From: Deinococcales bacterium
Lineage (GTDB): Bacteria > Deinococcota > Deinococci > Deinococcales > JAAFIG01
DNA: 64,000 bases
Direction: 5' to 3'
Assembly: GCA_031414595.1 (NCBI GenBank)
Contig: JANNVX010000032.1
Span: 6,947 to 70,946 of the forward strand
Shown: positions 3,091 to 25,192 of the stretch, piece after piece
Position numbering within the stretch: the stretch's first letter is position 1
How the letters are laid out: every line of letters starts with the position of its first letter
The notes under the pieces: model-generated
Seen by the model: only the letters and a program-made list of their open reading frames with translations
What the model was told of the DNA's origin: nothing
Database searches by the model: none
Program-made: the position numbers and the translations under genes

Positions 3091-3633
3091 ATGCGATTTC
3101 TTTTTTTAATCCTAATGCTTTTCGGCTTCTCGAGTTTCACGCTGGCGCAGGATTTCTCGAGCAGCGCGGCATTGAACAGTCTAGCGGCTGTTTCGCAAAC
3201 AATCTCAAGGCTTGACCCACCTGTTTTAATGGCTCGAGATTGGGTCTTTGGCGGTTTAGAAGCTGGTTTTGCTGGTCGCACCGTCTCAACGCGCTTACTG
3301 CTTTGGTCGTTGCCGTGGATGGGCGCAAGTATCCTTGGTTTAACCCTAACCACCGATGACAAAGCCAAGGGGTTTTGGAGCATGAGCGGCGCTTGGGGAT
3401 TTATCAATAGTGCGATTGCAATGATTGGTTTTCTGACCCCAGAATCAGACCTCGAGAGCTTACGGAATTTACTGCTGATTAACGCTGGTGTAGATGTGCT
3501 GTACATCGCGGCGGGTGCGTACATGTTGTCTCGAGCCGAAGCCTATTGGCAGGGAGCAGGTTGGGGCGTGATTTTACAAGGTACTTTTTTATTGGTTTTT
3601 GATTTATGGCAGGGTTTGGCAATTCGGTTTTGA
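3091..3633 (+). CDS. hypothetical membrane protein
   Basis: Signal-like N-terminus and several hydrophobic helices. 180 aa. Confidence 0.4.
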   Translation: MRFLFLILMLFGFSSFTLAQDFSSSAALNSLAAVSQTISRLDPPVLMARDWVFGGLEAGFAGRTVSTRLLLWSLPWMGASILGLTLTTDDKAKGFWSMSGAWGFINSAIAMIGFLTPESDLESLRNLLLINAGVDVLYIAAGAYMLSRAEAYWQGAGWGVILQGTFLLVFDLWQGLAIRF

Positions 3634-3667
3634 CTCAAAGCCCATAGCCCAAAGCTCATAGCCCAAC
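3634..3667. repeat. left copy of a ~34-bp inverted repeat pair (CTCAAAGCCCATAGCNCAAAGCNCATAGC)
   Basis: About 90% identical to the reverse complement of 13617-13651. Abuts the stop codons of two convergent genes. Confidence 0.5.
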
Positions 3668-4098
3668 TATGGAATCACATATATCCCATCGCTGCGAGCC
3701 TCGAGCTTAAAGGCTGGTAATGGCTTGGCGGCTGGACCTTGAATCACTGCACCTGTTTCTAAGTTAAACAAACTGCCGTGGCAAGGGCAACCAAGTTGAT
3801 TATTGACGGGTGCGCTGACTCCACAGCCAACATGGGTGCAAACCGTAGAACGAGCAATTAAATGGATTTCGCCTTGGCTGATGCCAGCCGCTTGTGGTTT
3901 GGCAACCCTTGCAATAATGGCTGGATTGGTCTCGAGATTGAGGTTCTTAAAACTACCAACACTGGGAAATTCGCTTAAAGTCGCTACTTTTATGCCCGCT
4001 TGGGCTAGACTCGCTCCGGGGTTTTCTCGGATTGGCATACAGCCAGTCGCACCAATTGCTCCAATTGTAACTAGGGCTTCTCGTCTGGTGATTTTCAT
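3667..4098 (-). CDS. Rieske [2Fe-2S] protein with Tat signal
   Basis: Twin-arginine N-terminus MKITRREAL. Rieske boxes CTHVGC and CPCHGS. Confidence 0.75.
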   Translation of the reverse strand: MKITRREALVTIGAIGATGCMPIRENPGASLAQAGIKVATLSEFPSVGSFKNLNLETNPAIIARVAKPQAAGISQGEIHLIARSTVCTHVGCGVSAPVNNQLGCPCHGSLFNLETGAVIQGPAAKPLPAFKLEARSDGIYVIP

Positions 4099-4315: not shown

Positions 4316-5767
4316 GTGGGTATGAGTATGCTCGAATCTGTGCGTGATCGTTTGTTTCCTGATACTCCAGACGGGTCGGCAAAGCTGTGGCTTACGTCGT
4401 CTGTGGTCTGGGGGGTTATTGGCATGACCTTTGGTGTGTTCATGGCAATTTTGTTTGTCTTTCCAGAATTCACCAAAGGTGTGCCGTGGTTGTCGTTTAG
4501 TCGGATTCGTCCGTCACACGTCAACACCGTGGTGATGTCTTGGGTTTCGATGGCAAGCATTGGCTCGATGTTTTATATGTTGCCGCGCTTATTAAAGACT
4601 CCACTGGTTTCTGAGCGTCTGGGTACGGCGGTCGGTTGGTCTTGGAACGCCTTTGCCATCTGTATTCCGCTAACACTCTTAAATGGACTATCGGAAGGGC
4701 GCGAGTGGGCGGAGCTTGTTTGGTGGATGGATTGGTGGATGTTGATTAACCTTGGCTTGGTCGGTTATTTAACCTTTGCGACTGTGGCAAGACGCACCGA
4801 ACCACAATTGTACGTCTCGGTTTGGTATTGGATGGGTTCGATGGTTGGCATGACCTTGGTCTGGATTGTTGGCAACCGAACTTTTGTACCACTAGACGGA
4901 CTTAACGATGCGATTGCCAATTGGTTCTATGCCCACGATGTATTAGGATTATGGATTACCACCATGGGCATTGGAATTATTTACTACCTGTTGCCAAAAC
5001 TAACGGCTGGCAAGAATGGCGAACCGGGCAACCCTGTCTTTAGCCATAAAATGTCCTTGATTGGGTTCTGGGGAAATTTTGCCTTCTACACGGGTATTGG
5101 GGCGCATCACATTATTCAGTCGCCAGTTCCAGAATGGCTTAAAGCCTTTGCGATTGCCTCGAGTGTTTTAATGAGCATTCCAGTCTACTCGGCAAGTGCC
5201 AATTTTTTCTTAAGCACCCAAGGGCGTTGGGAGAACTTGGCTTGGAATTTACCGCTTCGATTTGTAACCTTTGGCTGGATTATGTACGCGCTCTCGAGTT
5301 TTCAGGGCAGTTTACAAGCAGTGCGTTCAATCAACTGGTATCAGCACTTCACGGGAATTGTCAGCGCTCACGCCCATTTAGCCATGCTTGGTGGCTTTAG
5401 CGTGGTGTTGTTTGCTAGTATTTATTACTGTATTCCGCGTCTTTACAAAGTCGAGTGGTACTCTAAAAAACTCGTGGTGGTGCATTTTTGGACGTTTACG
5501 GTTTCGTTTGTAATGTTCTTTTTGGTCTGGACAACCATGGGCTTTGTACAAGCCACCAGTTGGGTCATGGGGATTAACGTCCAACAAACCGTGCCATTTT
5601 TACAACCGTTTACCTTCACCCGCATGATTGCCGCGTTAGCGATGATTTTTTCGGTTTATATTTTTGCCTATAACGTGCTGCAAACTGTGCGGAGCGCTAA
5701 ACGTCAAGAGGCTTTTTCCGGAGCCAGAATTCCTTCAGCAGTTGCGCCTGCTGCGGCGGATGATTAG
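4316..5767 (+). CDS. ccoN: cbb3-type haem-copper oxidase subunit I (CcoN-like)
   Basis: 483 aa polytopic protein. His-ligand motifs GAHH and HAH are present. Followed by CcoO. SD GGAGGAAGG lies upstream. Confidence 0.75.
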   Translation: MGMSMLESVRDRLFPDTPDGSAKLWLTSSVVWGVIGMTFGVFMAILFVFPEFTKGVPWLSFSRIRPSHVNTVVMSWVSMASIGSMFYMLPRLLKTPLVSERLGTAVGWSWNAFAICIPLTLLNGLSEGREWAELVWWMDWWMLINLGLVGYLTFATVARRTEPQLYVSVWYWMGSMVGMTLVWIVGNRTFVPLDGLNDAIANWFYAHDVLGLWITTMGIGIIYYLLPKLTAGKNGEPGNPVFSHKMSLIGFWGNFAFYTGIGAHHIIQSPVPEWLKAFAIASSVLMSIPVYSASANFFLSTQGRWENLAWNLPLRFVTFGWIMYALSSFQGSLQAVRSINWYQHFTGIVSAHAHLAMLGGFSVVLFASIYYCIPRLYKVEWYSKKLVVVHFWTFTVSFVMFFLVWTTMGFVQATSWVMGINVQQTVPFLQPFTFTRMIAALAMIFSVYIFAYNVLQTVRSAKRQEAFSGARIPSAVAPAAADD

Positions 5768-5775
5768 GAGTTTTT

Positions 5776-6699
5776 ATGCTGAATCCTAAGAATGCAATTA
5801 TCGGGCTGATGTTTATGCTCCTTGTGACTGGTGTGACCAGTTTGGTGGTCGTCGTACCCGCCGCAACTTTTAATCCTGAGCCATCAGTTGGTTTACGCAA
5901 TTACACCGAAGCCGAGTTGCGTGGGCGCGAAGTTTTTAAGCGCGAGAACTGCTATGTTTGCCATAGTCAATTTGTGCGTTTTCAAGACGAAGGTGTTGGT
6001 CCAACTTCGCAAGCTGGCGACTTTGCCTACGACAATTCAAACTTGCTCGGCACGCTGCGAAATGGTCCGGATTTGACCTATGAAGGCGGCTTATACCCGG
6101 ACGAATGGCACATTGGGCATCTAAAAGCGCCGCGTTCGTACTTACCGGGCAGCTATATGCCAAGTTACAGTTACTTAGACTCTAAAGACATCAAAGACCT
6201 TGTGGCATTTATCCAAAGCCTTGGGACACGCAATACACGAGCTTGGGACACCAAAGATGTCAATGTCCCAGAAAAGTACCGCAATCTCGAGTCTCCACTT
6301 GGTCAGACGGCAGCAAATATCGGGGCTGGGCGTGGTATTTACAACCAGAATTGCTCGGCTTGTCACGGCTTTGAGGGTCGGGCAGATGTGCCTTTGGCAA
6401 AAATGTTCTATCCAAAACCAGCCGCCAATTTCCATTTGCCTCGTTATAAAGATTTTACCGACGGACACTGGTTTAATAAAGTCGCAAGGGGCGTACCGGG
6501 AACTCGGATGCCGCGCTGGGACCAAATTCTCAATTCTGAGCAAATGTGGTATGTCGTCACCTACCTAAAGTCTTTAGCAGCAGACCAAGACCTTGTGCCG
6601 AAAGCGGGACGGGAAAAGTATTACGACAAGTCAGTTTTGCAACCCGGAACAATCAAGAAAAAGTACGAAGGCGCACCTAAAGCGGGCGGTGGTCACTAA
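5776..6699 (+). CDS. ccoO: CcoO-like monohaem subunit fused to a second c-type cytochrome domain
   Basis: N-terminal TM helix. First CYVCHSQ...GPDL...MPSY region matches the FixO/CcoO pattern. A second CSACH haem motif sits in the C-terminal half. Confidence 0.7.
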   Translation: MLNPKNAIIGLMFMLLVTGVTSLVVVVPAATFNPEPSVGLRNYTEAELRGREVFKRENCYVCHSQFVRFQDEGVGPTSQAGDFAYDNSNLLGTLRNGPDLTYEGGLYPDEWHIGHLKAPRSYLPGSYMPSYSYLDSKDIKDLVAFIQSLGTRNTRAWDTKDVNVPEKYRNLESPLGQTAANIGAGRGIYNQNCSACHGFEGRADVPLAKMFYPKPAANFHLPRYKDFTDGHWFNKVARGVPGTRMPRWDQILNSEQMWYVVTYLKSLAADQDLVPKAGREKYYDKSVLQPGTIKKKYEGAPKAGGGH

Positions 6700-6992
6700 T
6701 GAAACATTTGGCTCGAGCCTTGGTTCTTGCTTGTTTCTCGAGTTTGGCATTTGCCGACCATGTGCCGGGCGTTGGCTTAAATTACAGTGGAACTTGGGTG
6801 GTGTTGATTGCTGTTGGTGTGATTTTTTCGCTTTTGATTTTGTCTTTGTTGTGGGCAGTTTTAGATGGGCAATTTCAGAATTCTGAACGGGTTAAATTTG
6901 CAGTGGCAGAGGTTAATGAAACCGATTTTATTCCGAGTATTGAGCGTCCGCAAGGCAATCTGGGTATTCAACGTCCGCAAGGCAAGAGGTGA
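6699..6992 (+). CDS. small membrane protein with C-terminal ERPQGN repeat
   Basis: TAATG-coupled to ccoO. One TM helix. The DNA carries a tandem copy of CGTCCGCAAGGCAA. Confidence 0.4.
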   Translation: MKHLARALVLACFSSLAFADHVPGVGLNYSGTWVVLIAVGVIFSLLILSLLWAVLDGQFQNSERVKFAVAEVNETDFIPSIERPQGNLGIQRPQGKR

Positions 6993-6995
6993 GTT

Positions 6996-7154
6996 ATGGC
7001 AGAGCAGAATAAAGACAACCACGACGACAACCATACCCACGAAATTGCTGGTATTCAAGTTGGCGAGAAAAACGTGCCAACCTCAGTGATTGCTGTGATT
7101 ATTTTCATTGTCTTTTTCGCCTTAATTTCTTGGATTGCACCACAGGGGTTTTGA
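6996..7154 (+). CDS. 52-aa single-TM protein, FixP_N/CcoQ-like
   Basis: Not in the ORF track (<60 aa). HTHEIAGIQ...TM helix resembles the CcoP N-terminal segment. Its stop overlaps the start of the next gene (TGATG). Confidence 0.35.
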   Translation: MAEQNKDNHDDNHTHEIAGIQVGEKNVPTSVIAVIIFIVFFALISWIAPQGF

Positions 7155-8158
7155 TGAAAAAAATCATAACACTCTTTCTAATCTCGAGTTTAGCCGCTTG
7201 TAGCGTACCGAGTAACGCCAATAATCCAGCCAAAGAAGCCGCCAAAAAAGGGGTTTTGTACATTCGTGAAGGCGAAAAACCACTTGAATTAAAAGTCGAA
7301 GAAGGCGCATATGACTGGAAGTACCCGAAGTACCCCGAAGATTACAAAGTTGATTTGAGTAACCGCGACCAAAACAACCAAACTTATATGTCTGGGCGGG
7401 AAATCACTTACCGAGCCAAACCCGATGGTCAACATAAAATGGACACTGCCTTGGCAGAATTTGGTTCATATGCAGGTCCTTGGCTCGAGGGCGAAGAAGC
7501 CTTGCTCTTACCAGTAGCCAACCCCAATGTGGTACTGGGTGACGCTTTAATCAAGAGTTTGGGGGCAGAAATCAAGCCCGAAATGCTGCCGACACTCGAA
7601 GAAACCCCTTTTCAGGCATACTTAAAATTGCGTGAACTTGGTAAGGACACGGAAGGTCGTCACCGCACTGTAACCATCGAATTAACTGGTGTGACTAACC
7701 CTTCGAGTGGCAAGCCCGAAAATGCCGAGTACGATGTTCAACTTGATAAAGAGGCTTTATGGAGCATTGCTTACGCTTTGTACCGCAAAATTCAACCTGA
7801 CTTTAAGACCAGAATTCCAACTCGAGAAGACCCGAAAAAACTACTCGATGGCGCATTGATTTACGGCAATTGCAACATGTGTCACGGCTCGGATGGTTGG
7901 GGCTTGGGCAAGAGTGGTCATAAGTTGCAACCACACCCAGCCAATTTTCATGAGCCAAGGCGTTTGTTTAATCGTTCTGATGCCAAACTGCGTGAAGTCT
8001 TGAAGCACGGAATTTACGGAAGTGCCATGCCACCGTGGGGTGACATACTCTCTGAAAATGAAATTAACCATGTGGTGGCATATATTCGTTCTTTTTCGTA
8101 CAGTCTCGAGCCACCAGTCTTGAATGTCAAACCACGTTTTAAGGGAGGTCAGCCATGA
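7154..8158 (+). CDS. lipoprotein with C-terminal monohaem cytochrome c domain (CcoP c-domain-like)
   Basis: Lipobox LAAC. CNMCH haem motif and a C-terminal cyt-c-like tail. Start trimmed to MKKIITL. Confidence 0.6.
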   Translation: MKKIITLFLISSLAACSVPSNANNPAKEAAKKGVLYIREGEKPLELKVEEGAYDWKYPKYPEDYKVDLSNRDQNNQTYMSGREITYRAKPDGQHKMDTALAEFGSYAGPWLEGEEALLLPVANPNVVLGDALIKSLGAEIKPEMLPTLEETPFQAYLKLRELGKDTEGRHRTVTIELTGVTNPSSGKPENAEYDVQLDKEALWSIAYALYRKIQPDFKTRIPTREDPKKLLDGALIYGNCNMCHGSDGWGLGKSGHKLQPHPANFHEPRRLFNRSDAKLREVLKHGIYGSAMPPWGDILSENEINHVVAYIRSFSYSLEPPVLNVKPRFKGGQP

Positions 8159-8183
8159 ACCTGACACTCAAGGGAGGTCAACC

Positions 8184-8837
8184 ATGATTGACCGCAGAAG
8201 TATCGTGAAAGGCATCACTATTTTGCCGCTTTTAGCTGTGGCTGGTGGGATTGGAACTGCCCTTTTATCGTTTCTTAAACCGACTTGGAAACCACTGGCT
8301 TTGCCTGTCACCGAAAAACCCTTAAATGAGGACAAAGTTGTTGGCACACTCGAGGAATTTGCTAAGGATTACGACTTTAAGGCGTTTGTATTCACGCAAA
8401 TTACCGTCGAATACACGGCTCGAGGGCGGGCGGCTACCGATGTGCTTGGTTATGCGGTTCGCATCCCCAATAACAGTTTAGCCGCCGCCGATGTGGGTGT
8501 TGGACCCAGTGGCTTACGCCGAGGCTACGGCGAAACTGATTACAATGGTCAAAAGTACAGCATTGTGGTGGTCTCAAGAATTTGCGCTCATTTGGGTTGT
8601 ATTTTTGAGTACCATCAACCTGCCGAAGTTTGTTCTGGCTTTAATTACTGTGGCGGCTCTACTCCAATGTTTTCTTGTCCGTGCCATTTATCGGTCTATG
8701 ACCCAGCCCAACAGCAAGATGTGGCTGGGGTTGGTAAATTACCCGGCAAGGTTGTCTCTGGTCCTGCGCCCCGCACTCCATTTCCTTTTGATTTTGAAAT
8801 TAAAGGCAATGAAATCATCGTCAAAAGCTACGGTTAA
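8184..8837 (+). CDS. Rieske iron-sulfur protein of a bc/b6f-type complex
   Basis: SD AGGGAGG then ATG. N-terminal TM helix. Rieske boxes CAHLGC and CPCHLS. Confidence 0.75.
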   Translation: MIDRRSIVKGITILPLLAVAGGIGTALLSFLKPTWKPLALPVTEKPLNEDKVVGTLEEFAKDYDFKAFVFTQITVEYTARGRAATDVLGYAVRIPNNSLAAADVGVGPSGLRRGYGETDYNGQKYSIVVVSRICAHLGCIFEYHQPAEVCSGFNYCGGSTPMFSCPCHLSVYDPAQQQDVAGVGKLPGKVVSGPAPRTPFPFDFEIKGNEIIVKSYG

Positions 8838-8849: not shown

Positions 8850-10157
8850 ATGGCAGCCCCCGCAGTTCCCGCAAAAAAAGCTGTTCCAAATGTTGGGCAA
8901 AAAATCGCCCAATGGTGGACTAAAAGTGCGCGTAATTTAGATTTATTTGACGAAAACCAAACCGATAAAGTTTTAACCGACCCGTGGTACATGCTTGGTG
9001 GGATGGCGTTGTTGTTTTGGTACATCACCATTGTGACAGGCACAGTTCTGATGTTTTTTTATGTGCCGGACACCTATCAGGCATGGCGCAGTGTGCGTGG
9101 AATGTTTGAAGGTGAACAGGGTTTTATTGTTGCCCTGATTCGCAATATGCACAAATACGGCGCAGATGCACTGATTATTGCCCTAACAATGCGAATTTAC
9201 CGCATGTACTTTAGGGGTGAATTTAAGAATTACAATCAGCTTTCCTATATGCTGACAATCATTGGCTTACTTTTAGCCATGTTTAGTGGTTTAACGGGTT
9301 ACTTGCTGATTTGGAATCAACGCGCACTGTGGGCAACCAAGGTTTTTGCGACCTTCCCAACTTTTGTGGATGATTTTCACAATATCCCGACGATCAAAGT
9401 CTTCCTAGCTCCGCTTGCTTATGTTCTCGAGCATACCCTCTCGAGTCTTAAAATTGGGGCTTTGACGGCTAATTTTATGCTGGCTGGTCAAAGTATCGGT
9501 CCAGCTACTTTGACCCGTTTTTACAGCGCCCATTTTATGCTTTCGATGCTGGCAATTTTGGCAATTGAAGCCTACTTTGCCCGTAAGGGACGCGGTGGTA
9601 AAATTGGTGAAGCGGCAGCCGGTGGTGGGGCTGGGCGCTTTAAGCGGATTAATTTACCGTGGTTTGCAGTGGTTTTTTGTTTTGTAATTCTGGTGGTAGT
9701 TTCGATTTGGGTTCCAGTGGATACGGGCAGCCCCGCGAACTACAGCGTTACGCCAAATCCGATTTTGTCCGACTGGTACTTTTTGGGGTTGTACCAAATG
9801 ATGAAGTGGTGGCAACCCGCCGTGGCAACCTTACAGACCGTTTTGCTTCCCTTGGTGGCTTTTATTGTCGTCTTTTTAGATTATAGCCCCGAACGCAATC
9901 CTTGGAAACGCCCGTTCTGGACAATGGTTGGAATTTACGGATTGGTCTCATGGTTGGCGTTTAGCATCCTGATTATTCTAAACATTGCCGACATTAAACG
10001 CGACCCACCTTATGTTTACTTGGTCAGCATGATTATGCTTGGGGCTGGCGCAATTTGGCACTGGGTCTTTATGGCAGGCGAACGCAAAAAACGCTTAAAA
10101 CTCGAGGCAGAAAAAGCCGCTAAAGCTGCTCTAGCCGCCCCACAAGCGGCTGATTAA
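8850..10157 (+). CDS. cytochrome b (long form) lacking both haem bH ligands
   Basis: Cyt b/b6 helix B and D motifs are present. First His is retained (NMHKYG, SAHFML). Residues at the +14 His positions are Arg and Tyr. Confidence 0.7.
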   Translation: MAAPAVPAKKAVPNVGQKIAQWWTKSARNLDLFDENQTDKVLTDPWYMLGGMALLFWYITIVTGTVLMFFYVPDTYQAWRSVRGMFEGEQGFIVALIRNMHKYGADALIIALTMRIYRMYFRGEFKNYNQLSYMLTIIGLLLAMFSGLTGYLLIWNQRALWATKVFATFPTFVDDFHNIPTIKVFLAPLAYVLEHTLSSLKIGALTANFMLAGQSIGPATLTRFYSAHFMLSMLAILAIEAYFARKGRGGKIGEAAAGGGAGRFKRINLPWFAVVFCFVILVVVSIWVPVDTGSPANYSVTPNPILSDWYFLGLYQMMKWWQPAVATLQTVLLPLVAFIVVFLDYSPERNPWKRPFWTMVGIYGLVSWLAFSILIILNIADIKRDPPYVYLVSMIMLGAGAIWHWVFMAGERKKRLKLEAEKAAKAALAAPQAAD

Positions 10158-10174: not shown

Positions 10175-10477
10175 ATGAAAGGAAGCACTTGGCTATTTAC
10201 CCTCGCCTCATTTGTTGGTGGCATCCTTGTCTTTTCAAGTGGCTACAACCAAGTGTTGCGCTACCTCGAGCAGCCGACTTGGACGGGCTTAGCGATGATT
10301 GCTTTTTGGTTGACTTTGCTGCTGTTTTTTGTGGTTACACTGGGGTTTATTATGTATGCCGTAGACCGCAAAGCTGGCAATGTACGGGTCAAAATCGCGT
10401 TATTTGAACGTTTACTGGGTTATTCTAAAGAGGCTGTTTTGCCAGAATCTCGAGAAAAAAATAAGGAGAATTCATGA
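10175..10477 (+). CDS. small membrane protein (2 TM)
   Basis: Hydrophobic 100-aa ORF with an SD. Lies within the coupled operon. Confidence 0.4.
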   Translation: MKGSTWLFTLASFVGGILVFSSGYNQVLRYLEQPTWTGLAMIAFWLTLLLFFVVTLGFIMYAVDRKAGNVRVKIALFERLLGYSKEAVLPESREKNKENS

Positions 10478-10845
10478 AGACAATCATCGCCATACTGCTG
10501 GTTTTAGGGGCGCTCGGACTTGCGCCTTTGACCATTGGGGCGTTCGCTCACGCCAATCCAGATTTTGGAACAGTTGATAAAACCTTATCTTCCGAAAATC
10601 CATACATTGTTCGTGAGGATGGAGCGCCAAAAATTCCAGAGCTTGCGGTGAGCTTGGTTAAAATTATTCGAGATACCGAAGGGGCGATTTCTGGGGCGTT
10701 GCTGCCAAACCTAAAATCCTTCCCATTTGAACGTGGCTTTGCGTATATGGGCTTAACTGTACTGCTGACTGCGATTGCTTCGGCACTGCTTGCCGATACG
10801 CGCAGTCAAACCCTCGTTAAACCTGGCAAGAGGAGGCTGGCATAA
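10474..10845 (+). CDS. exported protein (signal peptide)
   Basis: ATGA overlap with the upstream gene. Cleavable-looking N-terminus. Confidence 0.4.
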   Translation: MKTIIAILLVLGALGLAPLTIGAFAHANPDFGTVDKTLSSENPYIVREDGAPKIPELAVSLVKIIRDTEGAISGALLPNLKSFPFERGFAYMGLTVLLTAIASALLADTRSQTLVKPGKRRLA

Positions 10846-12032
10846 TGGCAGGTTACAGCGCCGACCAAGCCCCAACTTCTCGGGACAAAGGTTTTGATGC
10901 AGGTTTAGATGGTATCCATAAAGGTGTTGTTGCCGTAGACAAAGCCATCAATAAAGTCATCCCCGAAGAGTTCAATCCGTTTTATTACTTGGGCGGCATC
11001 ACCAATGTACTTTGGGTGCTGCTTGTGCCAACCGGCATTTTCTTGTGGTTTTACTATAAACCCACCACCTCAGAAGCCTTCTCGAGTGTTGATTATTTAA
11101 CCGTACAGGTCTTTTTTGGTGGTGTGATTCGCGGTATTCATCGTTATGCTGGCAATGGCATGATTTTATTGGCGGTGCTGCACATGTTGCGTAATTTCTT
11201 CACCGACCGTTACCGAGGCTTTAGAGATATCCCTTGGGTTTCTGGAGTTATCCTCTTGTTTCTAACTGGTTTCATTGGCTTGACTGGTTATTTGTTGGTT
11301 TGGGATCAACGCGCCTTGGTCATTACCGAAGCCTTGGTACAGATTTTACGCAGTTTTGACTTGGTGGTTGCTGGATTTGGCACTTGGTTAGCCAGAGGAC
11401 TCATCGGTGGTGACGAACCGAATAATTTAACCTTGGCTCGGATGCTGTTTTTGCATGTTGGACCTGCAGTGATGGTGTTCTTTTTCTTGTGGGTGCATTA
11501 TTTGCGTTTGCACCGCCCCAAAATCTGGCCTCCGGCTTTTGTAACGCTACTGACGATTGGCGCAGTTTTATTGGTGGCTGGTTTAGCACCACTCGAGAAA
11601 ACCTTGCCCGCCACACAACCGATTGTTGAAGGACAAGCTGCCATTGTCTATGACATTTTCTATTTGCTGCCTGTATTAGCGCTCTCGAGCATCAGCGCCC
11701 CTTGGATTTTGGCGATTCTACTGCTGCTTTTTGCGGTGATGTTTATTCTGCCTTGGATTCCAGCCAAAAAACACCGTTATGTCAATGTCGCAACCGTCAC
11801 CCCAGAAAACTGTACCGGTTGTCAACTCTGTGCTATTGACTGCCCGTTTGACGCAATCGTGATGGTTCCTGGAGCAAATCCAAATCCGCGTTATACCGAG
11901 TTAGCCGTGGTCAATGATGACAAATGTGCTGAATGTGGTATTTGCGTTGGTGCTTGCCCATTCCATGCAATCAATCTCCCGCTCATGGATGAATACACTG
12001 TGCGCGATAAGGTGGTGGCGTTACTTAAATGA
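10845..12032 (+). CDS. dihaem cytochrome b domain fused to 2x[4Fe-4S] ferredoxin domain
   Basis: Helix B has H..(13)..H (GIHRY...VLHML). Helix D has H..(13)..H (FLHVG...WVHYL). C-terminal CTGCQLCAIDCP and CAECGICVGACP motifs. Confidence 0.75.
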   Translation: MAGYSADQAPTSRDKGFDAGLDGIHKGVVAVDKAINKVIPEEFNPFYYLGGITNVLWVLLVPTGIFLWFYYKPTTSEAFSSVDYLTVQVFFGGVIRGIHRYAGNGMILLAVLHMLRNFFTDRYRGFRDIPWVSGVILLFLTGFIGLTGYLLVWDQRALVITEALVQILRSFDLVVAGFGTWLARGLIGGDEPNNLTLARMLFLHVGPAVMVFFFLWVHYLRLHRPKIWPPAFVTLLTIGAVLLVAGLAPLEKTLPATQPIVEGQAAIVYDIFYLLPVLALSSISAPWILAILLLLFAVMFILPWIPAKKHRYVNVATVTPENCTGCQLCAIDCPFDAIVMVPGANPNPRYTELAVVNDDKCAECGICVGACPFHAINLPLMDEYTVRDKVVALLK

Positions 12033-12517
12033 CACAAGCAACTGAACATATCCAACCCCAAGTTTTAGCCTTGAGTGGCAAACCCAAAATTTTTGGCTTT
12101 GTCTGCGAATGGAGCTTAGGACGCACCGATTACATCCATGAAGATGGCACGGTCAAAGGCATGGAGCATATCAAAACCCTTAAAATTCCTTGCTCGGGCT
12201 TTGTGAAAACCGAATGGGTCACGGTGGCATTTGAAAATGGCGCTCAAGGTGTGTTTGTGCTGGGTTGCCCACTCGGAGATTGCCATTTTAACGAAGGTAA
12301 CTTCATTATTAACGGCAGACTCGAGCAGCACACAGGCAGAATGGTCAACCGTAAAATCATTGACGAAGCTGGGCGCGTTGCCGAGCTTTACCTTGGTGTG
12401 ACTGGCAACAACGATTTCTTTACTCAACTCGAAGACTTCACCAAGTACATCAGCGACATGCCAGCCTTGGTAGTCGCTGCCAAAAAACCTCGGGCTGCGG
12501 CAGCCAAAAAGGAGTAA
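12029..12517 (+). CDS. MvhD/FlpD-like hydrogenase iron-sulfur subunit family protein
   Basis: Cys pattern CEWS...PCSGF...GCPLGDCHF, typical of the methyl-viologen-reducing hydrogenase delta subunit family. ATGA-coupled to the upstream gene. Confidence 0.6.
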   Translation: MTQATEHIQPQVLALSGKPKIFGFVCEWSLGRTDYIHEDGTVKGMEHIKTLKIPCSGFVKTEWVTVAFENGAQGVFVLGCPLGDCHFNEGNFIINGRLEQHTGRMVNRKIIDEAGRVAELYLGVTGNNDFFTQLEDFTKYISDMPALVVAAKKPRAAAAKKE

Positions 12518-12521: not shown

Positions 12522-12725
12522 ATGGAAGAAACTGCTGTAAATTCTAAAATTCTCGAGATAAGCGGCGAATCTACCTTGGCTGTGCGACCTGAACTCGAGC
12601 AAGTTGGAACTACCGAAAAGGACTCTCGGGGGGTGGGCTATCTGATGAATTGGGTCAGTTTAATTTTACTTTTTGTGCTTTCAATGATTGCCATTGCTTG
12701 GTTTGGACCTTTTAGCGAAGTATAG
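12522..12725 (+). CDS. small C-terminally anchored membrane protein
   Basis: SD AAGGAG. One TM helix at the C-terminus. Confidence 0.35.
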   Translation: MEETAVNSKILEISGESTLAVRPELEQVGTTEKDSRGVGYLMNWVSLILLFVLSMIAIAWFGPFSEV

Positions 12726-12773
12726 CCGAGCCTCATCTTAAGTCTGGTTCTTAATCATCCAAAAAGCGTTAAA

Positions 12774-12806
12774 CTAGAGGCAACCATCAGTGGTTGCCTC
12801 TAGTTT
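12774..12806 (+). terminator. perfect 12-bp stem hairpin abutting the kinase start codon
   Basis: CTAGAGGCAACC-ATCAGT-GGTTGCCTCTAG followed by TTT, then ATG. Confidence 0.4.
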
Positions 12807-13616
12807 ATGGCAAGAATCCCTTTAACAACACCTGAGCCAGCCGAACCTTCCAATGCGATGGATAAGTTGCGTATGAGCCAAATAGAAATTATCTCGATCA
12901 CCCCATTTATTCGGCTCGAGAAGGGCAATTGGCAAGGCAAGCGTGTGCTGGTCAAACGCTTAAAAACATCCATGATGAACAACCCTGATGTGCTTGAACG
13001 CTTCGAGCGCGAAGCCGATATTCTCGAGCGGCTTGACCACCCGAATATCCCAGCCTTGATTCACCGCGAATCTGGGGTACTGATGCGCCAATACGTTGAA
13101 GGCAACACGCTTTATCATTACCTCAACACCGCCACCATAGACACCGCCTCAACTTTGCATATTGCAAGGGGTTTATTGTCGGCATTGGTGCATTCGCACG
13201 TCCGAGAAATCCTACATTTGGATGTCAAACCCGCCAATGTGCTACTCAGCGCTGACCGCCGCGTCCATCTGATTGATTTTGGATGTGCCAAAGACCTGAC
13301 TTTGGGCAGTATTACCCACCATGAAGCCCGTCTTGGCACACCGCATTACATGGCACCCGAGCAATTCAAAGGCATCCGCGATGAACAACGCTCCGACATT
13401 TACAGCGTCGGGGCAGTGATGTACGAATGCCTGATGGGACAACCACCACAACGTGACCCATTTGCATGGTTATCTGGACGTGGTGCATTACCCAAGCAAA
13501 TGCCTAAGAATAATCAGTTGGCTGATATCATCTGGAAAGCCATTCAACGCAACCCAGACCACCGATACGACGAAGCCCTTGATATGCTCGAGGCGTTAGA
13601 AGCGATTGAAGTTTAG
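12807..13616 (+). CDS. Ser/Thr protein kinase (Hanks-type)
   Basis: HLDVKPANVLL catalytic loop, DFG, and GTPHYMAPE activation segment. Confidence 0.75.
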   Translation: MARIPLTTPEPAEPSNAMDKLRMSQIEIISITPFIRLEKGNWQGKRVLVKRLKTSMMNNPDVLERFEREADILERLDHPNIPALIHRESGVLMRQYVEGNTLYHYLNTATIDTASTLHIARGLLSALVHSHVREILHLDVKPANVLLSADRRVHLIDFGCAKDLTLGSITHHEARLGTPHYMAPEQFKGIRDEQRSDIYSVGAVMYECLMGQPPQRDPFAWLSGRGALPKQMPKNNQLADIIWKAIQRNPDHRYDEALDMLEALEAIEV

Positions 13617-17658: not shown

Positions 17659-17940
17659 ATGAACCTCGAGCAAATACAGCAGATTGCTGCCCGAAATCGT
17701 GTCCAACGACTCGAAATTTTTGGTTCGGCATCTCGAGGTGAAACTGCCAACGACTTTGATTTTTTGGTGCAATTTCAACCGATGCCTGTCCTTGAGCATG
17801 GTCGGGCATATTTTGCGTTGCTTGAGGAATTACGTCTGGCTTTGAATAAACCGATTGATTTACTTGAGGAAAACGCGATTGAAAATCTATTTTTTCTAAA
17901 AAGTATCGCCGCCGATAGAAAAGAGATTTATGTCGCTTGA
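17659..17940 (+). CDS. mntA: MNT-type nucleotidyltransferase antitoxin
   Basis: GSxxRGE...DxD minimal nucleotidyltransferase motif (FGSASRGETANDFDFLV). Confidence 0.7.
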   Translation: MNLEQIQQIAARNRVQRLEIFGSASRGETANDFDFLVQFQPMPVLEHGRAYFALLEELRLALNKPIDLLEENAIENLFFLKSIAADRKEIYVA

Positions 17941-18265
17941 AGCCCAAATATACGCGGCTGATATTCTCAAAGCCATTGGTTTGATTGAACGATTTACCAA
18001 GAACTTTGAGTATGAGGCGTATTGCTTGGATGTCTTGCGAATTTCGGCGGTTGAGCGTCAACTGGGTATTATTGGTGAAGCTGTGACACAAATGGTTAAA
18101 CTCAATTCGAGTTTTTCGGTTCGCAATGCAAAACAAATTATTGGGTTTCGTAATATTTTGATTCATAATTATGCTCGAGTTAGCCAAGCTGTGATTTGGA
18201 CAATTGTCATAGATGAATTACCCGTCCTAAAAATTGAATGCGAAGCAATAGTTGAATTAACCTAA
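17930..18265 (+). CDS. hepT: HepT/DUF86 toxin
   Basis: Overlaps the MNT gene. HepT R-x4-HxY-like motif (RNILIHNY). Confidence 0.7.
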   Translation: MSLEAQIYAADILKAIGLIERFTKNFEYEAYCLDVLRISAVERQLGIIGEAVTQMVKLNSSFSVRNAKQIIGFRNILIHNYARVSQAVIWTIVIDELPVLKIECEAIVELT

Positions 18266-19689: not shown

Positions 19690-19830
19690 ATGAAAGACAG
19701 TCATAAAGACCAGAAAATTCCGTATCAAACTCCAAAACTCGAGGGGTTAGGCGTATTTGTGGCGCTCATCGGTGGTTCACCGATTCGTGTGCCAATTCAA
19801 CTCGAAGTGCCAGTAAAAGGAGAAAAATAA
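19690..19830 (+). CDS. 46-aa small protein, translationally coupled to the downstream lipoprotein
   Basis: SD AAAGGAG. ORF MKDSHKDQKIPYQTPKLEGLGVFVALIGGSPIRVPIQLEVPVKGEK. Its stop overlaps the next start (TAATG). Confidence 0.35.
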   Translation: MKDSHKDQKIPYQTPKLEGLGVFVALIGGSPIRVPIQLEVPVKGEK

Positions 19831-21725
19831 TGAAAAACCCCATAAATTACCTAGCAACTGCCTTTGTTGCCGCCATTGCCTTAGCCGCCTGTACGCAAAC
19901 CAGTCCTCAACCACAACAAGTTCTCGGGCTGATGCGAATTGGTTTTCAAGTTGACTCAAGCGGTGTAAGTTCAAACGCCAAATTGCAACCACAAACCCTG
20001 ACAGGCACAGCCAGTGGAATCCAAATGAAGTTAATTAACACCAGTACCTTCACGACTGGCACAAGGGGTTCTGGCGGTGAGCGCTGGGTCAGTGCAACCT
20101 ATGACATTCGCAACGCCACCACTGGCGGCACAGCCTATACAAGCGCCAACAGCAACATCAGTTTTCTGGCGGTTAGCACGGCAACCAGTCTTGGTGAAAG
20201 TGCGATTGCCGATATGAAAAGTTACGGCGGCACACTTTTGACCACGCCAGCCTTGGCGCAGTCGTTTAAGCCCACCCACGGAATGCGCTACAACGCCCTA
20301 GGCAACACAGTCGAAACCAGTTCTGGGGCAGAGGATTTTCAGGTCTTTGATGAATCTGAAGTCTCGAGCTTTGCCACGGCGGGTGTTGTCCCCATCAATT
20401 ATGGTTTTGTGGTCAGGCGCACCAGTGCTAACCCGACAAGCCGCACCTTAGCTGCCAACCCAAGCACCAATTTATTCGAGGGGCGGGTCACATTGGCGGT
20501 GCGTTTTCCATTGCAAGCCACCATCTCGGATGACCCATTTACCTTTTCAATGGACTTTTTGGTGGTCACAGACGACCAGACCAGAGTCACCCAAAGTCTC
20601 GAGCAACAAGCCCTCAACAGCCTTCCAAGTCAGACAGCCCAATTGACGGGGGCAGTGGTCAATACCCTACCCGGCTCGACCGACACTACCGCGACCAACC
20701 GTTTTGTTCCAAGTGTGCGTTTGGCACGGGCGGTGGGTGCGCCAACTGCGATTTATTTAGTTCAAGCACCAACAACCATTAACGTCTCGAGTAACGCCGA
20801 CAGTGGCGCTGGAACACTACGCAGTGCGATTCAAAACATTGCTTCTGGAGGCACAATCAACCTAAATAGCATTAACGGTCAGAACATCACGCTTTTAAGT
20901 ACCTTGGTGATTGGTAAAAGCCTGACAATCACCAATACCAACGCCACACCAACGGCGGCTGTACTGGGTGGGGCAACTGCTTTTAACAGCAGCAATGTGC
21001 GTGTTTTTAACATTCAAAGCGGCAATACTGTAACCCTAAGCAACTTCACCATCGGTAATGGTTATGTTTCTGGCAGTTCTGCACAAGGGGCGGCAATTCT
21101 AAACGCTGCTACACTGACATTAAGCAACATCAGGGTACAAAATAATCAAGCCCAAGGTGGTGTGGGTAGCAATGGCACGCCTGGTTTTAATGGGGGTCAA
21201 GATGGTGGGGTCGGAGGCGCGGCGCAAGGCGGCGCAATCTATAATTCTGGCGCATTAACAATTAACTCGATCAGCCTGTTTAGTGGTAATAGGGCGATTG
21301 GTGGTATCGGTGGTTCAGGCGCGGCTGGGTCTCAGGTGAATAGTTTTCCCAATGGTCTGGGCGGACTGGGCGGAACTGCCCAAGGCGGAGCGATTTTTAA
21401 TGCCAGCACTGCTACACTGAGCATCAATACTGTCACCTTTAACACCAATAATGCCACGGGTGGACAAGGCGGAGCGCCGGGTAATGCACTGGGTGGTTCA
21501 GGTCAACAAACTTATGGCAAAGGTGGTTCTGGTGGAAACGCCAACGGCGGCGCAGCTTTCAATGCCAACGCTACGGCTGGTTCTGCCACAGCCGTGACTG
21601 TGACTTACGGAACAGTCGCCAATGCCAATACGGTTATTGGTGGGCTTGCTGTGCAAGGTGGAACACCACTTGGGACAAATAATGGAACAAATGGAACAAC
21701 CAGCAGTCCGAATGCAAATTTCTAA
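19830..21725 (+). CDS. lipoprotein with PMP-like parallel beta-helix repeats (GGAI/FxxN) and Gly-rich tail
   Basis: Lipobox LAAC. Repeated GGAI(Y/F)N and FNxN motifs. GGxGG tracts. Confidence 0.6.
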   Translation: MKNPINYLATAFVAAIALAACTQTSPQPQQVLGLMRIGFQVDSSGVSSNAKLQPQTLTGTASGIQMKLINTSTFTTGTRGSGGERWVSATYDIRNATTGGTAYTSANSNISFLAVSTATSLGESAIADMKSYGGTLLTTPALAQSFKPTHGMRYNALGNTVETSSGAEDFQVFDESEVSSFATAGVVPINYGFVVRRTSANPTSRTLAANPSTNLFEGRVTLAVRFPLQATISDDPFTFSMDFLVVTDDQTRVTQSLEQQALNSLPSQTAQLTGAVVNTLPGSTDTTATNRFVPSVRLARAVGAPTAIYLVQAPTTINVSSNADSGAGTLRSAIQNIASGGTINLNSINGQNITLLSTLVIGKSLTITNTNATPTAAVLGGATAFNSSNVRVFNIQSGNTVTLSNFTIGNGYVSGSSAQGAAILNAATLTLSNIRVQNNQAQGGVGSNGTPGFNGGQDGGVGGAAQGGAIYNSGALTINSISLFSGNRAIGGIGGSGAAGSQVNSFPNGLGGLGGTAQGGAIFNASTATLSINTVTFNTNNATGGQGGAPGNALGGSGQQTYGKGGSGGNANGGAAFNANATAGSATAVTVTYGTVANANTVIGGLAVQGGTPLGTNNGTNGTTSSPNANF

Positions 21726-21816: not shown

Positions 21817-24549
21817 ATGACCCCAGAAGAACGCGCCAGATTCCGCATAGACCAACAACTGCTGGCATCTGGTTGGGTTCTACAAAACAAAGATGAGTTT
21901 AATCGCACGGCTGCTTTTGGGGTGGCGGTGCGTGAATTTGCCTTGTTAAACGGCGAAGCTGATTATTTGCTGTTTGTGGATGGTAAAGCCATTGGGGTTC
22001 TCGAGGCAAAACCAGTTGGCACGACCCTTTCTGGGGTGGCAGAACAAACCAAGAAATACCTCGAAGGAGTACCGCCGCACCTCGCCAAACACAGTGCCAA
22101 TTTGCCTTTTGGCTTTGAAAGTACAGGACAAGAAACGTTTTTAATAGATACCCGAGACCCGAATGCCCGTTCAAGGCGAATTTTTCAAATCCACCGCCCA
22201 GAAACCCTGCTCGAGTGGGTGCGGCAGCCAACGACCTTACGAACCCGTTTAAGCCAGTTACCAAGCGTAGACAAAAACGGTTTGCGCTTATGCCAAATAG
22301 AGGCAGTTGGCGGACTCGAGCAGAGTTTAAGCCAGAATAAACCCCGCGCTTTAATTCAGATGGCAACCGGCAGCGGCAAAACCTTTACTGCCGTGACCAG
22401 CAGTTACCGCTTGATAAAACAGGCTGGCGCAAAACGAATTTTGTTCTTGGTAGACCGCAACAATTTAGCCAAACAAACCCTCGCCGAATTCCAGCAATAC
22501 ACCACCCCAGACGATGGGCGCAAATTTAGTGAACTCTACAATGTCCAGATGCTACAAGGTAAACGCCTAGACCCTGTAGCCAAAGTAGTGATTGGCACAA
22601 TCCAGCGCCTTTTTAGTATGCTTAAAGGCGAAGAGATAGACGATGAACTCGATAACAAAAGCCTGCATGAACTGGGGATTAAAGACCAAAAACCCAAAGA
22701 AGTGATGTATAACCCCGAGATTCCGATAGATTCTTTTGATTTTATTATTATTGACGAATGCCACCGCAGCATTTATAACCTCTGGCGTGGGGTTCTCGAG
22801 TATTTTGATGGGTTTTTGATTGGTTTAACCGCCACCCCAAGTAAACAAACGATTGGCTTTTTTAACCAGAACCTTGTGACCGAATACGCCTACAGCCAAG
22901 CCGTCAAAGATAATGTCAATGTGGATTACGATGTCTACCGCATTAAAACCCAAATTGGCGAATTTGGGGCAACCATCGAACAAGGCGAATACATTGATAA
23001 ACGCGACCGCCAAACCCGCCGTAAACGCTGGGAGGCACTGGACAATGACCTTGAATACACAGGCAAAGAACTTGACCGCAGCGTTGTAGCGGTCAGCCAA
23101 ATCCGCACCGTGATTCGCACCTACAAAGAAAAACTGCTCGAGATTTTCCCAGAGCGCAGCCATACCCCAAAAACCCTGATATTTGCTAAAACCGATAGCC
23201 ATGCCGAAGATATTGTTGAAATTGTGCGTGAAGAATTTGGCAAAGGCAATGATTTTTGTAAAAAAATAACCTACCGCACAACCGAAGACCCCGAAACGTT
23301 GATCAAAGAATTTCGCAACAATTATTATCCACGAATTGCCGTGACCGTAGACATGATTAGCACTGGCACAGACATTAAACCACTCGAGGTGCTGCTGTTT
23401 ATGCGCGATGTTGCCAGCGCTGTCTACTTTGAACAAATGAAGGGACGCGCCACCCGCACCATCCATCCAGACGAACTCAAAGCCGTCACCCCAGATGCCA
23501 AACACAAAACCCATTTTGTGCTGGTGGACGCAGTGGGCGTAACCGAAACAATCAAAACCGATTCTAAACCACTCGAGCGCTTACCGAGTATTCCCTTTGC
23601 CAAAATCCTGCAAAAAATTGCCATGGGCGACACCAGCTTAGAAACCATCTCGAGTTTAGCCAGCCGTTTAACCCGACTTGATAAAAAACTAAGCGAAACC
23701 AGCCGCGATGCACTGGAAGTCCACGCCAAAAAAGACCTCAAAACCGTTGTTGCAAACCTCATTCGCGCCACCGACCCAGACAGCATCGAAGCCCACGCCA
23801 TAACCCAAACGGGCAACCCCAACCCAAGCGATTTGCAATACGACCAAGCCCAATCTGACTTAGCCGAAAATGCCGCCCAGCCATTTAATAACCCAGAATT
23901 CAGGCGTTTACTCGAGGACATCCAACGCGATAGCGAACAAACCATAGACACCGTCACCCAAGACCAAGTGCTGTATGTCGGCTACGATTTTGACAAAGCC
24001 AGACGGATGGTACAAACATGGCAAGACTTTATCGAACAACACAAAAACGAACTGACGGCACTGCAAATTATTTACAACCAACCCAAGCAACAACAAAAAC
24101 TGACCTTTGCCGCAATCCAACAACTTGCCAGCGCCATCGAGCAGCCACCGTACTATTTAACCCCAGAAAATGTTTGGAAAGCCTACGAAAACCTCGAGCA
24201 AACCCGAGTGAAAAGCAGCCACAACCCGCAGCGCCTCCTAACCGACCTTGTAGCCTTGGTGCGCTTTACAACTGGGCAAGACACGATGCTAACACCATTT
24301 ATGGACACCGTACAACACCGTTTTCAGACATGGCTAAGTCTGCAACAATCGAGCGGCACAGCTTTTAGTACAGAACAACTCGAGTGGCTAGGCATGATCC
24401 GAGACCACATTGCCAGCAGTGCTGCGATTGAGATTCAAGACCTCGAACTCAGCCCGTTTCACCAACGCGGTGGGGCATACAAAGCCGTACAATTATTTAA
24501 GAACATCAGACCACTGCTCGAGGAACTCAACACGACCCTGAGTGCATAA
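21817..24549 (+). CDS. hsdR: type I restriction enzyme R subunit
   Basis: Walker A TGSGKTFT. DEAH-box DECHRS. Helicase C motifs. 910 aa. Confidence 0.85.
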   Translation: MTPEERARFRIDQQLLASGWVLQNKDEFNRTAAFGVAVREFALLNGEADYLLFVDGKAIGVLEAKPVGTTLSGVAEQTKKYLEGVPPHLAKHSANLPFGFESTGQETFLIDTRDPNARSRRIFQIHRPETLLEWVRQPTTLRTRLSQLPSVDKNGLRLCQIEAVGGLEQSLSQNKPRALIQMATGSGKTFTAVTSSYRLIKQAGAKRILFLVDRNNLAKQTLAEFQQYTTPDDGRKFSELYNVQMLQGKRLDPVAKVVIGTIQRLFSMLKGEEIDDELDNKSLHELGIKDQKPKEVMYNPEIPIDSFDFIIIDECHRSIYNLWRGVLEYFDGFLIGLTATPSKQTIGFFNQNLVTEYAYSQAVKDNVNVDYDVYRIKTQIGEFGATIEQGEYIDKRDRQTRRKRWEALDNDLEYTGKELDRSVVAVSQIRTVIRTYKEKLLEIFPERSHTPKTLIFAKTDSHAEDIVEIVREEFGKGNDFCKKITYRTTEDPETLIKEFRNNYYPRIAVTVDMISTGTDIKPLEVLLFMRDVASAVYFEQMKGRATRTIHPDELKAVTPDAKHKTHFVLVDAVGVTETIKTDSKPLERLPSIPFAKILQKIAMGDTSLETISSLASRLTRLDKKLSETSRDALEVHAKKDLKTVVANLIRATDPDSIEAHAITQTGNPNPSDLQYDQAQSDLAENAAQPFNNPEFRRLLEDIQRDSEQTIDTVTQDQVLYVGYDFDKARRMVQTWQDFIEQHKNELTALQIIYNQPKQQQKLTFAAIQQLASAIEQPPYYLTPENVWKAYENLEQTRVKSSHNPQRLLTDLVALVRFTTGQDTMLTPFMDTVQHRFQTWLSLQQSSGTAFSTEQLEWLGMIRDHIASSAAIEIQDLELSPFHQRGGAYKAVQLFKNIRPLLEELNTTLSA

Positions 24550-24852: not shown

Positions 24853-25192
24853 ACTAGAATTGTATTTAATCGATATTCTCGAGGCAATAGCGCGATTAAA
24901 GTTATTTACCAAAGGCTTTGACCAAGAAGCCTACCTGAATTCGTTGCTGGTACGAGATGCGAGCTTTCGCAATTTTATGGTTATTGGCGAGGCAGTTAAG
25001 CAAATTTCCGATGAATCTCGAGCTAAACACCCAACAGTACCTTGGAAATCTATTGCGGGTTTACGAGATTTATTAGCCCATGAGTATTTTAGAACCGATG
25101 ATCGAATTTTATGGAATGTAATTGAAAAAGAACTAGACCCACTCAAAGAAGCAGTCTTGGCACTTCTAGCAGCAAGCAAGGCTGACCGATGA
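24842..25192 (+). CDS. hepT: HepT/DUF86 toxin (second copy)
   Basis: GTG start overlapping the MNT gene. RDLLAHEY motif. Confidence 0.7.
   Translation: MSRKLELYLIDILEAIARLKLFTKGFDQEAYLNSLLVRDASFRNFMVIGEAVKQISDESRAKHPTVPWKSIAGLRDLLAHEYFRTDDRILWNVIEKELDPLKEAVLALLAASKADR

Follow-up and report, generated by a model that had tools for sequence, protein, structure and literature searches.

The stretch of DNA analyzed here, 64,000 nucleotides of contig JANNVX010000032.1 (GenBank assembly GCA_031414595.1) from a Deinococcales bacterium and referred to below as the window, contains a gene, here named bFer4 (10845 to 12032, plus strand), whose 395-amino-acid (aa) product joins a b/b6-type diheme cytochrome b, comprising helices A to F, to a C-terminal, probably cytoplasmic domain with binding motifs for two [4Fe-4S] clusters. 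It is directly followed by the gene for a soluble protein of the MvhD/FlpD family (12029 to 12517, plus strand; 162 aa), presumed to be a [2Fe-2S] carrier. Both are part of a cluster in which all genes between 4316 and 12725 lie on the plus strand, with small gaps or overlaps between them. Other products of the cluster are a Rieske protein, a cbb3-type oxidase, and a second cytochrome b of full length (cytb1; 8850 to 10157, plus strand). The two reading frames, their ATGA overlap (12029 to 12032), and the combination of a diheme cytochrome b with a double [4Fe-4S] domain had all been recognized in an initial annotation, made by reading the DNA without database searches, and were borne out by the coordinates, by Pfam, and by the motifs given below.

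The heme-binding part of bFer4 (aa 36 to 224) matches Cytochrome_B (PF00033) at 1.9e-28 and 100 bits, against a cutoff of 27.2. The ferredoxin-like subdomain, aa 314 to 382 (11784 to 11990, plus strand), contains two CxxCxxCxxxCP motifs, CTGCQLCAIDCP and CAECGICVGACP, and scores 43.4 bits with Fer4 (PF00037; cutoff, 21.1) and 41.1 bits with Fer4_7 (PF12838; cutoff, 27; aa 322 to 375). The heme histidines, H99 and H113 on helix B and H204 and H218 on helix D, are 14 positions apart within each pair and align with the histidines of cytochrome b6. These four histidines and the eight cysteines were invariant in alignments of 22, 75, and 78 homologues; a loss of conserved cysteines, which the initial annotation had named as a point that would count against the Fe-S domain, was not seen in any of the 78. 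Judged by its sequence, bFer4 should bind two hemes b, one near each membrane face. A database search returned 507 homologues, with the two-domain architecture retained down to approximately 36% identity.

Among solved structures, the closest relative of the heme domain is cytochrome b6 (1q90_B, 4.8e-33; best bc1 cytochrome b, 5.5e-17). Because the Pfam and NCBIfam matches of this domain are all to cytochrome b, b6, ExtP, SoxC, or QcrB, we rejected membership of the NarI/HdrE family; the HdrE/NarI logic invoked in the initial annotation thus holds as an analogy and fails as a family assignment. No NCBIfam model names bFer4, its scores with cytb_ExtP (NF040969; 142 bits) and cytochrome b6 (NF002990; 130 bits) being under the respective cutoffs of 290 and 325, and a Foldseek search against the PDB retrieved ordinary bc1 and b6f cytochromes b alone, with no solved chain carrying a cytochrome b-Fer4 fusion. 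Relative to 1q90_B, bFer4 is approximately 34% identical over helices A to D and has the four histidines in common, but it carries helices E and F in the same chain rather than in a subunit IV, lacks helix G, has the Fe-S domain added, and reads YLGG in place of CxGG. As the cysteine of the latter motif was not found in bFer4, we rejected the presence of heme cn, the b6f-type third heme. The spacing of the helix D histidines, 14, is that of bc1; in b6 it is 15. H223, which we take to be the equivalent of the bc1 Qi histidine on a presumed mapping of bFer4 positions onto bc1 residues, is variable (H, R, T, or S), and the ef motif, YDIFY, is degenerate, with its aspartate kept in 76 of 78 homologues.

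An AlphaFold2 model of bFer4 built on 75 sequences (predicted local distance difference test score, 89.2; predicted template modeling score, 0.84) shows six transmembrane (TM) helices followed by a ferredoxin fold. Its helices are A (aa 45 to 70), B (92 to 120), C (128 to 152), cd (155 to 187), D (194 to 219), E (231 to 247), a short ef helix (271 to 279), and F (285 to 304); neither the model nor hydropathy revealed a helix G or beyond, where canonical bc1 and b6f complexes have seven to eight helices. Since there are six TM helices, the Fe-S domain should lie on the same side as the N terminus, and the N terminus, like the end of helix D, faces the cytoplasm (n side) in the b6/bc1 family. 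Lysines and arginines are distributed in the same sense, with four in the BC loop, three within 8 residues in the DE loop, and a KKHR stretch after helix F on the n side, compared with none in the AB loop and one in the EF loop on the p side. Homology to b6 and bc1, charge bias, and the model thus agree in predicting that the Fe-S domain of bFer4 and the FlpD protein, in which no hydrophobic segment or signal peptide was found, are cytoplasmic. The topology prediction proposed in the initial annotation therefore came out in favor of the cytoplasm, and a periplasmic location of the Fe-S domain was rejected on the basis of the even helix count, the charge bias, the FlpD protein without a signal peptide, and the AlphaFold2 model.

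The FlpD protein matches Pfam FlpD (PF02662) at 2.6e-20 and 73.1 bits (cutoff, 22.3). The four-cysteine FlpD/MvhD pattern read from it in the initial annotation proved real: C26, C55, C80, and C85 are invariant in 76 to 77 of 77 orthologues and align with cysteines of MvhD (5odc_D, 1.4e-14), two further cysteines of which, in a CCNWC stretch, are not conserved in the FlpD orthologues. The protein most likely carries a [2Fe-2S] cluster. The start of bFer4 is preceded by AGGAGG at 9 nucleotides and overlaps by one base (TAATG) with the stop codon of the upstream gene sm2, which encodes a small membrane protein of 123 aa with N- and C-terminal hydrophobic segments (10474 to 10845, plus strand); in view of this AGGAGG sequence and the TAATG and ATGA overlaps, the sm2, bFer4, and FlpD genes are translationally coupled.

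Several lines of evidence tie FlpD to bFer4. Relatives of bFer4 are encoded at 402 genome loci (one representative genome per species), far too many for a coincidence, and among the best 80 of these, which were examined, an FlpD gene follows bFer4 in 78, as determined by tblastn and phmmer; a count of adjacent open reading frames (ORFs) gave 64 of 76, an undercount caused by overextended ORF starts in high-GC loci. A search with FlpD of 1.84 billion representative sequences retrieved proteins of approximately 500 to 700 aa with FlpD at approximately residues 370 to 500, and these are, by Pfam, single-chain Cytochrome_B-Fer4-FlpD proteins. In one such chain, P0256, the heme domain, helices E and F, an LDWFY motif, and Fer4 align colinearly with bFer4 (35% identity, 1e-70), and the FlpD domain comes directly after. 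Likewise, the NCBIfam model HdrA2 aligns with the Fer4 part of bFer4 at positions 571 to 639 and with FlpD at positions 644 to 771, consecutively. All of this argues that bFer4 and FlpD form one unit, a predicted wire of two hemes, two [4Fe-4S] clusters, and one MvhD-type site leading from the p face of the membrane to the cytoplasm. Proteins of the MvhD/FlpD family bridge a hydrogenase or a formate dehydrogenase to HdrA; no gene for a hydrogenase, an Hdr protein, or a flavoprotein was found in the cluster, in positions 1 to 47445 of the window, or conserved across the 80 loci. P0256 and another single chain of approximately 700 aa, P0278, additionally contain an extra TM segment and a C-terminal domain of approximately 150 aa without a Pfam match, which would sit on the outer face of the membrane.

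A fusion of this type was described earlier as the PDWF-FeS clade (Kao and Hunte 2014, PMC4122944), in which cytochrome b, 4Fe-4S, and MvhD modules are combined, in Magnetospirillum magneticum and Turneriella parva, and to which no function was assigned. The order of modules is common to that clade and the pair studied here (helices A to F, four histidines, an xDWF-like ef motif, two [4Fe-4S] motifs, and MvhD). In our cluster, however, MvhD is encoded by a gene of its own, translationally coupled to bFer4; YDIFY stands in place of PDWF as the ef motif; and a Rieske protein, an oxidase, and a further cytochrome b are encoded alongside.

That second cytochrome b is unusual in its heme ligands, although the label it receives from automatic annotation, "cytochrome bc complex cytochrome b subunit," is an ordinary one. 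Both its N and its C domains are recognized by Pfam (Cytochrome_B, Cytochrom_B_N_2, and Cytochrom_B_C). Direct reading of helices B and D showed one histidine each (IRNMHKYGADALIIALTMRIY and YSAHFMLSMLAILAIEAYF), with an arginine (helix B) and a tyrosine (helix D) in place of the n-side heme ligands. In an alignment with bFer4 and Chlamydomonas b6, the p-side ligands of cytb1 are kept in 68 and 69 of 69 locus orthologues, whereas the position of H113 is occupied by R in 59 and K in 9, with no histidine, and that of H218 by Y in 46, F in 13, R in 6, L in 2, and H in 2. An independent set of 119 database homologues gave the same picture (R102/K17 at H113; Y108/R8/W1/H2 at H218). The homologues showing this loss thus number approximately 190, come from different phyla, and are all annotated as normal cytochromes b of a bc complex. 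Because several of these residues cannot ligate heme, the cytb1 family is best read as a monoheme cytochrome b that would lack an inner heme and therefore also a Qi site. The initial annotation had correctly placed bFer4 in a Rieske/cytochrome b context but had overlooked this loss. It also escaped the survey of Kao and Hunte (PMC4122944), as that survey left out every cytochrome b lacking any of the four histidines.

Conservation within the two proteins follows the same division. The Qo elements are the most conserved parts of cytb1 (mean conservation of 0.79 for cd1, WNQRAFWAtKV, and 0.86 for ef, LSDWYFLaLYQ, in which SDWYF is invariant) and are loose in bFer4 (0.55 and 0.57); conversely, the n-side BC loop (RvWFTDRyr.yR..pW) reaches 0.74 in bFer4 versus 0.59 in cytb1, and helix A reaches 0.73 versus 0.56. 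In cofactors as in constraint, then, the two proteins appear complementary. With the n-side ligands of cytb1 lost, bFer4 is left as the sole transmembrane route for a low-potential electron.

This pairing is old and widespread. The best 80 loci belong to Deinococcales, Armatimonadota, Sysuimicrobiota/Fervidifonticultor, Bacillota (including Symbiobacterium thermophilum), Melainabacteria (including Vampirovibrio chlorellavorus and Obscuribacter phosphatis), Holophagaceae, and some metagenome-assembled genomes (MAGs) of Proteobacteria. The search for homologues and their genomic partners that the initial annotation had recommended thus yielded fixed neighbors: of the 63 loci whose flanks were long enough, 61 have cytb1 and the Rieske gene directly upstream of bFer4, in at least six phyla. 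One locus, L001, on a contig of an uncultured Deinococcales MAG, is 99% identical to the window at bFer4. Between cytb1 and bFer4, almost all loci have two small TM genes that contain no CxxCH, and the same operon of 11 to 12 genes was retrieved when two distant cytb1 homologues served as queries. Most lineages have the oxidase genes upstream, whereas those of the Armatimonadota/Sysuimicrobiota type have them downstream. A complex III-IV operon of Melainabacteria was reportedly described by Soo et al. in Science in 2017. The bFer4 cluster is evidently the "complex III/IV" arrangement presented for Melainabacteria in PMC6349859, where its genes were read as b6f subunits.

The remaining genes of the cluster would complete a path to oxygen. 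The first (4316 to 5767, plus strand) encodes a CcoN-like subunit I of a C-family (cbb3-type) heme-copper oxidase (COX1, 4.1e-68; NCBIfam ccoN, 1.7e-72, under the equivalog cutoff); 47 of the 80 related loci have such a gene upstream of the module. In the window, it is followed by CcoO/FixO fused to a second monoheme cytochrome c domain (5776 to 6699, plus strand; CYVCH and CSACH; FixO, 7.8e-35; Cytochrom_C, 1.8e-20; NCBIfam bifunctional cbb3 subunit II/cytochrome c, 3.3e-47) and by a membrane protein of 97 aa with one hydrophobic segment and no Pfam match (6699 to 6992, plus strand), the position of which is taken by small genes in loci L081 and L082 as well. Next comes a membrane- or lipid-anchored monoheme cytochrome c (7130 to 8158, plus strand; CNMCH; Cytochrome_CBB3, 1.5e-10, aa 246 to 319) with an N-terminal hydrophobic segment; its position is conserved in related loci, and it is likely the equivalent of cytochrome c1/f between the Rieske protein and the oxidase. 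Beside the oxidase gene, on the minus strand, we observed a second, small Rieske-domain protein (3667 to 4098) with an RR signal peptide and a cysteine after the hydrophobic stretch, conserved at 69% identity in locus L002 and adjoined by a DUF6992 membrane protein (3091 to 3633, plus strand).

The Rieske [2Fe-2S] protein of the cluster (8124 to 8837, plus strand) has an RR-containing N-terminal anchor and may truly start at M21 (8184). Its Pfam match is weak (0.0063), and its boxes are well preserved: C154, H156, C159, C185, C187, and H188, in box I (CAHLGC) and box II (CPCHLSVY), are invariant in 64 orthologues, and the serine and tyrosine of the S-Y signature are kept in 64 of 64 (S190) and 61 of 64 (Y192). 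By the rule that this signature marks Rieske potentials of >260 mV (PMC4122944), the cluster Rieske is predicted to fall in that range. The S-Y signature occurring together with the xDWY-type Qo motif of cytb1 is an unusual combination; in PMC4122944, xDWY motifs were seen only with low or mid-minus Rieske proteins.

Two more small membrane proteins belong to the cluster: sm1 (10175 to 10477, plus strand; 100 aa), ahead of sm2, and sm3 (12522 to 12725, plus strand; 67 aa, with a C-terminal TM segment), the last gene, which is conserved in sequence in Deinococcales loci and whose position is held by a gene of 43 to 47 aa in L081 and L082. Between sm3 and the ATG of the next gene, pattern matching revealed a palindrome (12770 to 12807) whose 17-bp stem pairs perfectly around a 4-nucleotide loop; it may mark the boundary of the operon or act as a regulatory hairpin. 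The gene starting at this ATG codes for a Ser/Thr kinase (12807 to 13616) that follows the cluster in all Deinococcales loci (eight; L002 to L008 and L029), and in 25 loci of the Armatimonadota/Sysuimicrobiota type a LuxR-type response regulator is encoded approximately 1.7 kb downstream. These genes may tie the respiratory cluster to signaling, or their presence may be a coincidence.

How might the cluster work? Tentatively, and at somewhat less than an even chance, we propose that cytb1 and bFer4 form a heterodimeric core from which the low-potential electron would leave via the Fe-S wire to a cytoplasmic acceptor. Each of the two proteins would take the place of one monomer in the usual cytochrome b dimer, and quinol, presumably menaquinol, would be oxidized at the Qo site of cytb1. 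The high-potential electron would then travel via the Rieske protein and cytochrome c to the cbb3 oxidase and O2, and the low-potential electron would pass from the outer heme (bp) of cytb1 to bp of bFer4 and on through bn, both [4Fe-4S] clusters, and FlpD until it reaches an acceptor in the cytoplasm, for which a ferredoxin, a flavodoxin, or a flavoprotein would be candidates. There would be no Q cycle; the complex would carry out a quinone-based electron bifurcation that exports the low-potential electron. Menaquinone is known in cultured Deinococcales. According to Hauser et al. (PMC12954380), a high-potential Rieske protein together with menaquinone implies a very low-potential p-side heme that is able to reduce low-potential acceptors, and if the quinone is menaquinone, this argument would apply to the cluster. 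Transfer between the bL hemes of bc1 monomers has been established by experiment (PMC4330944). The more far-reaching claim, namely, that an obligate heterodimer hardwired to a cbb3 oxidase performs O2-driven bifurcation and thereby makes ferredoxin-level reductant in aerobic or microaerobic bacteria, including the nonphotosynthetic sisters of the cyanobacteria, we consider conceivable but rather doubtful.

Several points weigh against the heterodimer. The dimerization of cytb1 with bFer4 and the presence of menaquinone in the host are both presumed, and the sequence does not tell in which direction electrons flow. Furthermore, cytb1 keeps the helix A glycine that normally makes room for the inner heme. 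Clustering of ORFs across the 80 loci revealed no universal gene downstream of FlpD that could be a candidate electron acceptor, only lineage-specific ones (kinase, response regulator, and ribosomal genes, such as rpsP in Vampirovibrionales), and positions 1 to 47445 of the window hold no obvious redox partner among housekeeping genes, a type I restriction-modification system, and one molybdopterin oxidoreductase. Finally, bFer4 and FlpD also occur apart from the other genes. At two Vampirovibrionales MAG loci, L030 (7977 to 10105) and L038 (3787 to 5391), no gene for a Rieske protein, cytb1, or an oxidase lies within 8 kb of them; the L030 pair is separated by approximately 580 bp and adjoins an RNA polymerase subunit gene. 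The fused proteins of the PDWF-FeS clade, too, were reported without a Rieske gene in their clusters (PMC4122944).

Since bFer4 and FlpD are found without a Rieske protein, they possibly work on their own, and the near-invariant aspartate in the Qo-like ef motif suggests, along with helices C to F, that bFer4 may own a p-side quinone site. It might follow that the cluster encodes two separate machines, merely coexpressed: a bFer4/FlpD wire from the quinone pool to the cytoplasm, probably a homodimer acting as a redox loop like NarI-NarH, HdrE-HdrD, or QmoC, and a Rieske/cytb1 pair acting as a simplified quinol:cytochrome c oxidoreductase without a Q cycle. We nevertheless think this unlikely, as in every lineage it would give the p-side heme of cytb1 no onward path despite fully conserved ligands and would not sit well with an adjacency as tight and ancient as that found here, and as the p-side pocket elements of bFer4 are far less conserved than those of cytb1.

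The close relationship of the heme domain to cytochrome b6, rather than bc1, invites another explanation, in which the wire runs inward. A cytoplasmic reductant, for example, reduced ferredoxin, would feed FlpD, the [4Fe-4S] clusters, and the inner heme of bFer4, from which quinone would be reduced on the n side or the oxidase supplied, as if the ferredoxin-dependent cyclic flow that enters cytochrome b6f had been hardwired. Conservation in bFer4 is indeed highest on its n-side surface (N-terminal helix, BC loop, and end of helix D), and PMC5600118 discusses ferredoxin as an n-side input to b6f. Against this stand YLGG in place of the heme-cn CxGG motif and the variable residue at the Qi histidine position; in addition, an exit on the p side would dissipate proton motive force, and the loss of the cytb1 inner heme would be left unexplained. 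We therefore regard an inward wire as improbable. That cytb1 holds its inner heme on unusual ligands, or completes a normal Q cycle by another route, with bFer4/FlpD as an accessory, regulatory, or redox-sensing module signaling, for instance, to the downstream kinase or two-component genes, is very improbable: the retained helix A glycine and the kinase and response regulator genes would fit, but the residues at the ligand positions vary (R/K and Y/F/R/L), several being unable to ligate heme, the signaling genes differ by lineage and are absent in Melainabacteria, and the invariant four histidines and eight cysteines of bFer4 are what one would expect of a working electron wire.

The heterodimer proposal can be set against several known systems. 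NarI/NarH, HdrE/HdrD, and QmoC follow the same logic, with stacked hemes across the membrane leading to a cytoplasmic Fe-S chain; QmoC itself joins a cytochrome b to FeS, and an MvhD-like domain is present in QmoB. Their cytochromes, however, are of another fold and family, and no catalytic partner is encoded near bFer4. Closer in kind are the anammox complexes Kuste4569-4574 and Kustd1480-1485 (PMC12954380), which likewise combine a b6-like Rieske/cytochrome b core with an extra n-side Fe-S module, pair a high-potential Rieske protein with menaquinone, and have been proposed, still without proof, to bifurcate at Qo to a low-potential cytoplasmic acceptor instead of Qi. In these, the module is a FAD/NAD(P) oxidoreductase subunit, of which there is none in our cluster, where a ferredoxin/MvhD module is found instead; furthermore, their cytochromes b are modeled as homodimers with both hemes and heme cn, and their high-potential branch ends in multiheme cytochromes rather than in an O2 reductase. 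In engineered asymmetric bc1 dimers (PMC4330944), a heme-to-heme hop across the dimer was shown in homodimers made asymmetric by mutation, whereas here two genes would provide a natural and obligate asymmetry. That complex III can be physically coupled to a cbb3 oxidase is known from bc1-cbb3 supercomplexes (PMC10556555 and PMC7876108). Our searches of the literature found no description of a complex of a Rieske protein, a monoheme cytochrome b, a cytochrome b-Fer4 protein, and MvhD. Thus, while the fusion type has been on record since 2014, its fixed association with a Rieske protein, a cbb3 oxidase, and a monoheme partner, in at least six phyla, seems to be undescribed.

Elsewhere in the window, we noted a type I restriction-modification system (HsdR-like, 21817 to 24549; HsdS, 25189 to 26727; HsdM, 27027 to 28496) preceded by a 631-aa ORF without a Pfam match (19830 to 21725), and two short overlapping ORFs (17659 to 18265) that may represent an MNT-HEPN toxin-antitoxin pair, on the basis of motifs recognized by eye (GSxxRG...DFD and RNILIH). 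The catalytic subunit of the molybdopterin oxidoreductase (39566 to 41794; Pfam Molybdopterin and Molydop_binding) is encoded approximately 27 kb from the cluster, with no evidence of a link.

In textbook complex III, symmetric dimers recycle the low-potential electron via Qi in the Q cycle. For a quinol-oxidizing cytb1, such recycling would be structurally impossible, and by gene content bFer4 is the only visible exit. If the heterodimer is real, the cluster would constitute a natural experiment on heme-to-heme transfer between monomers, so far studied only in engineered bc1, and would provide, in an aerobic setting, a counterpart to the Rieske/cytochrome b complexes of anammox bacteria, whose bifurcation is still unproven. 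It would also call for a revised reading of the "complex III-IV operon" of Melainabacteria, Armatimonadota, and their relatives, now annotated as ordinary bc or b6f. As Symbiobacterium thermophilum and Vampirovibrio chlorellavorus can be grown, the question is experimentally tractable.

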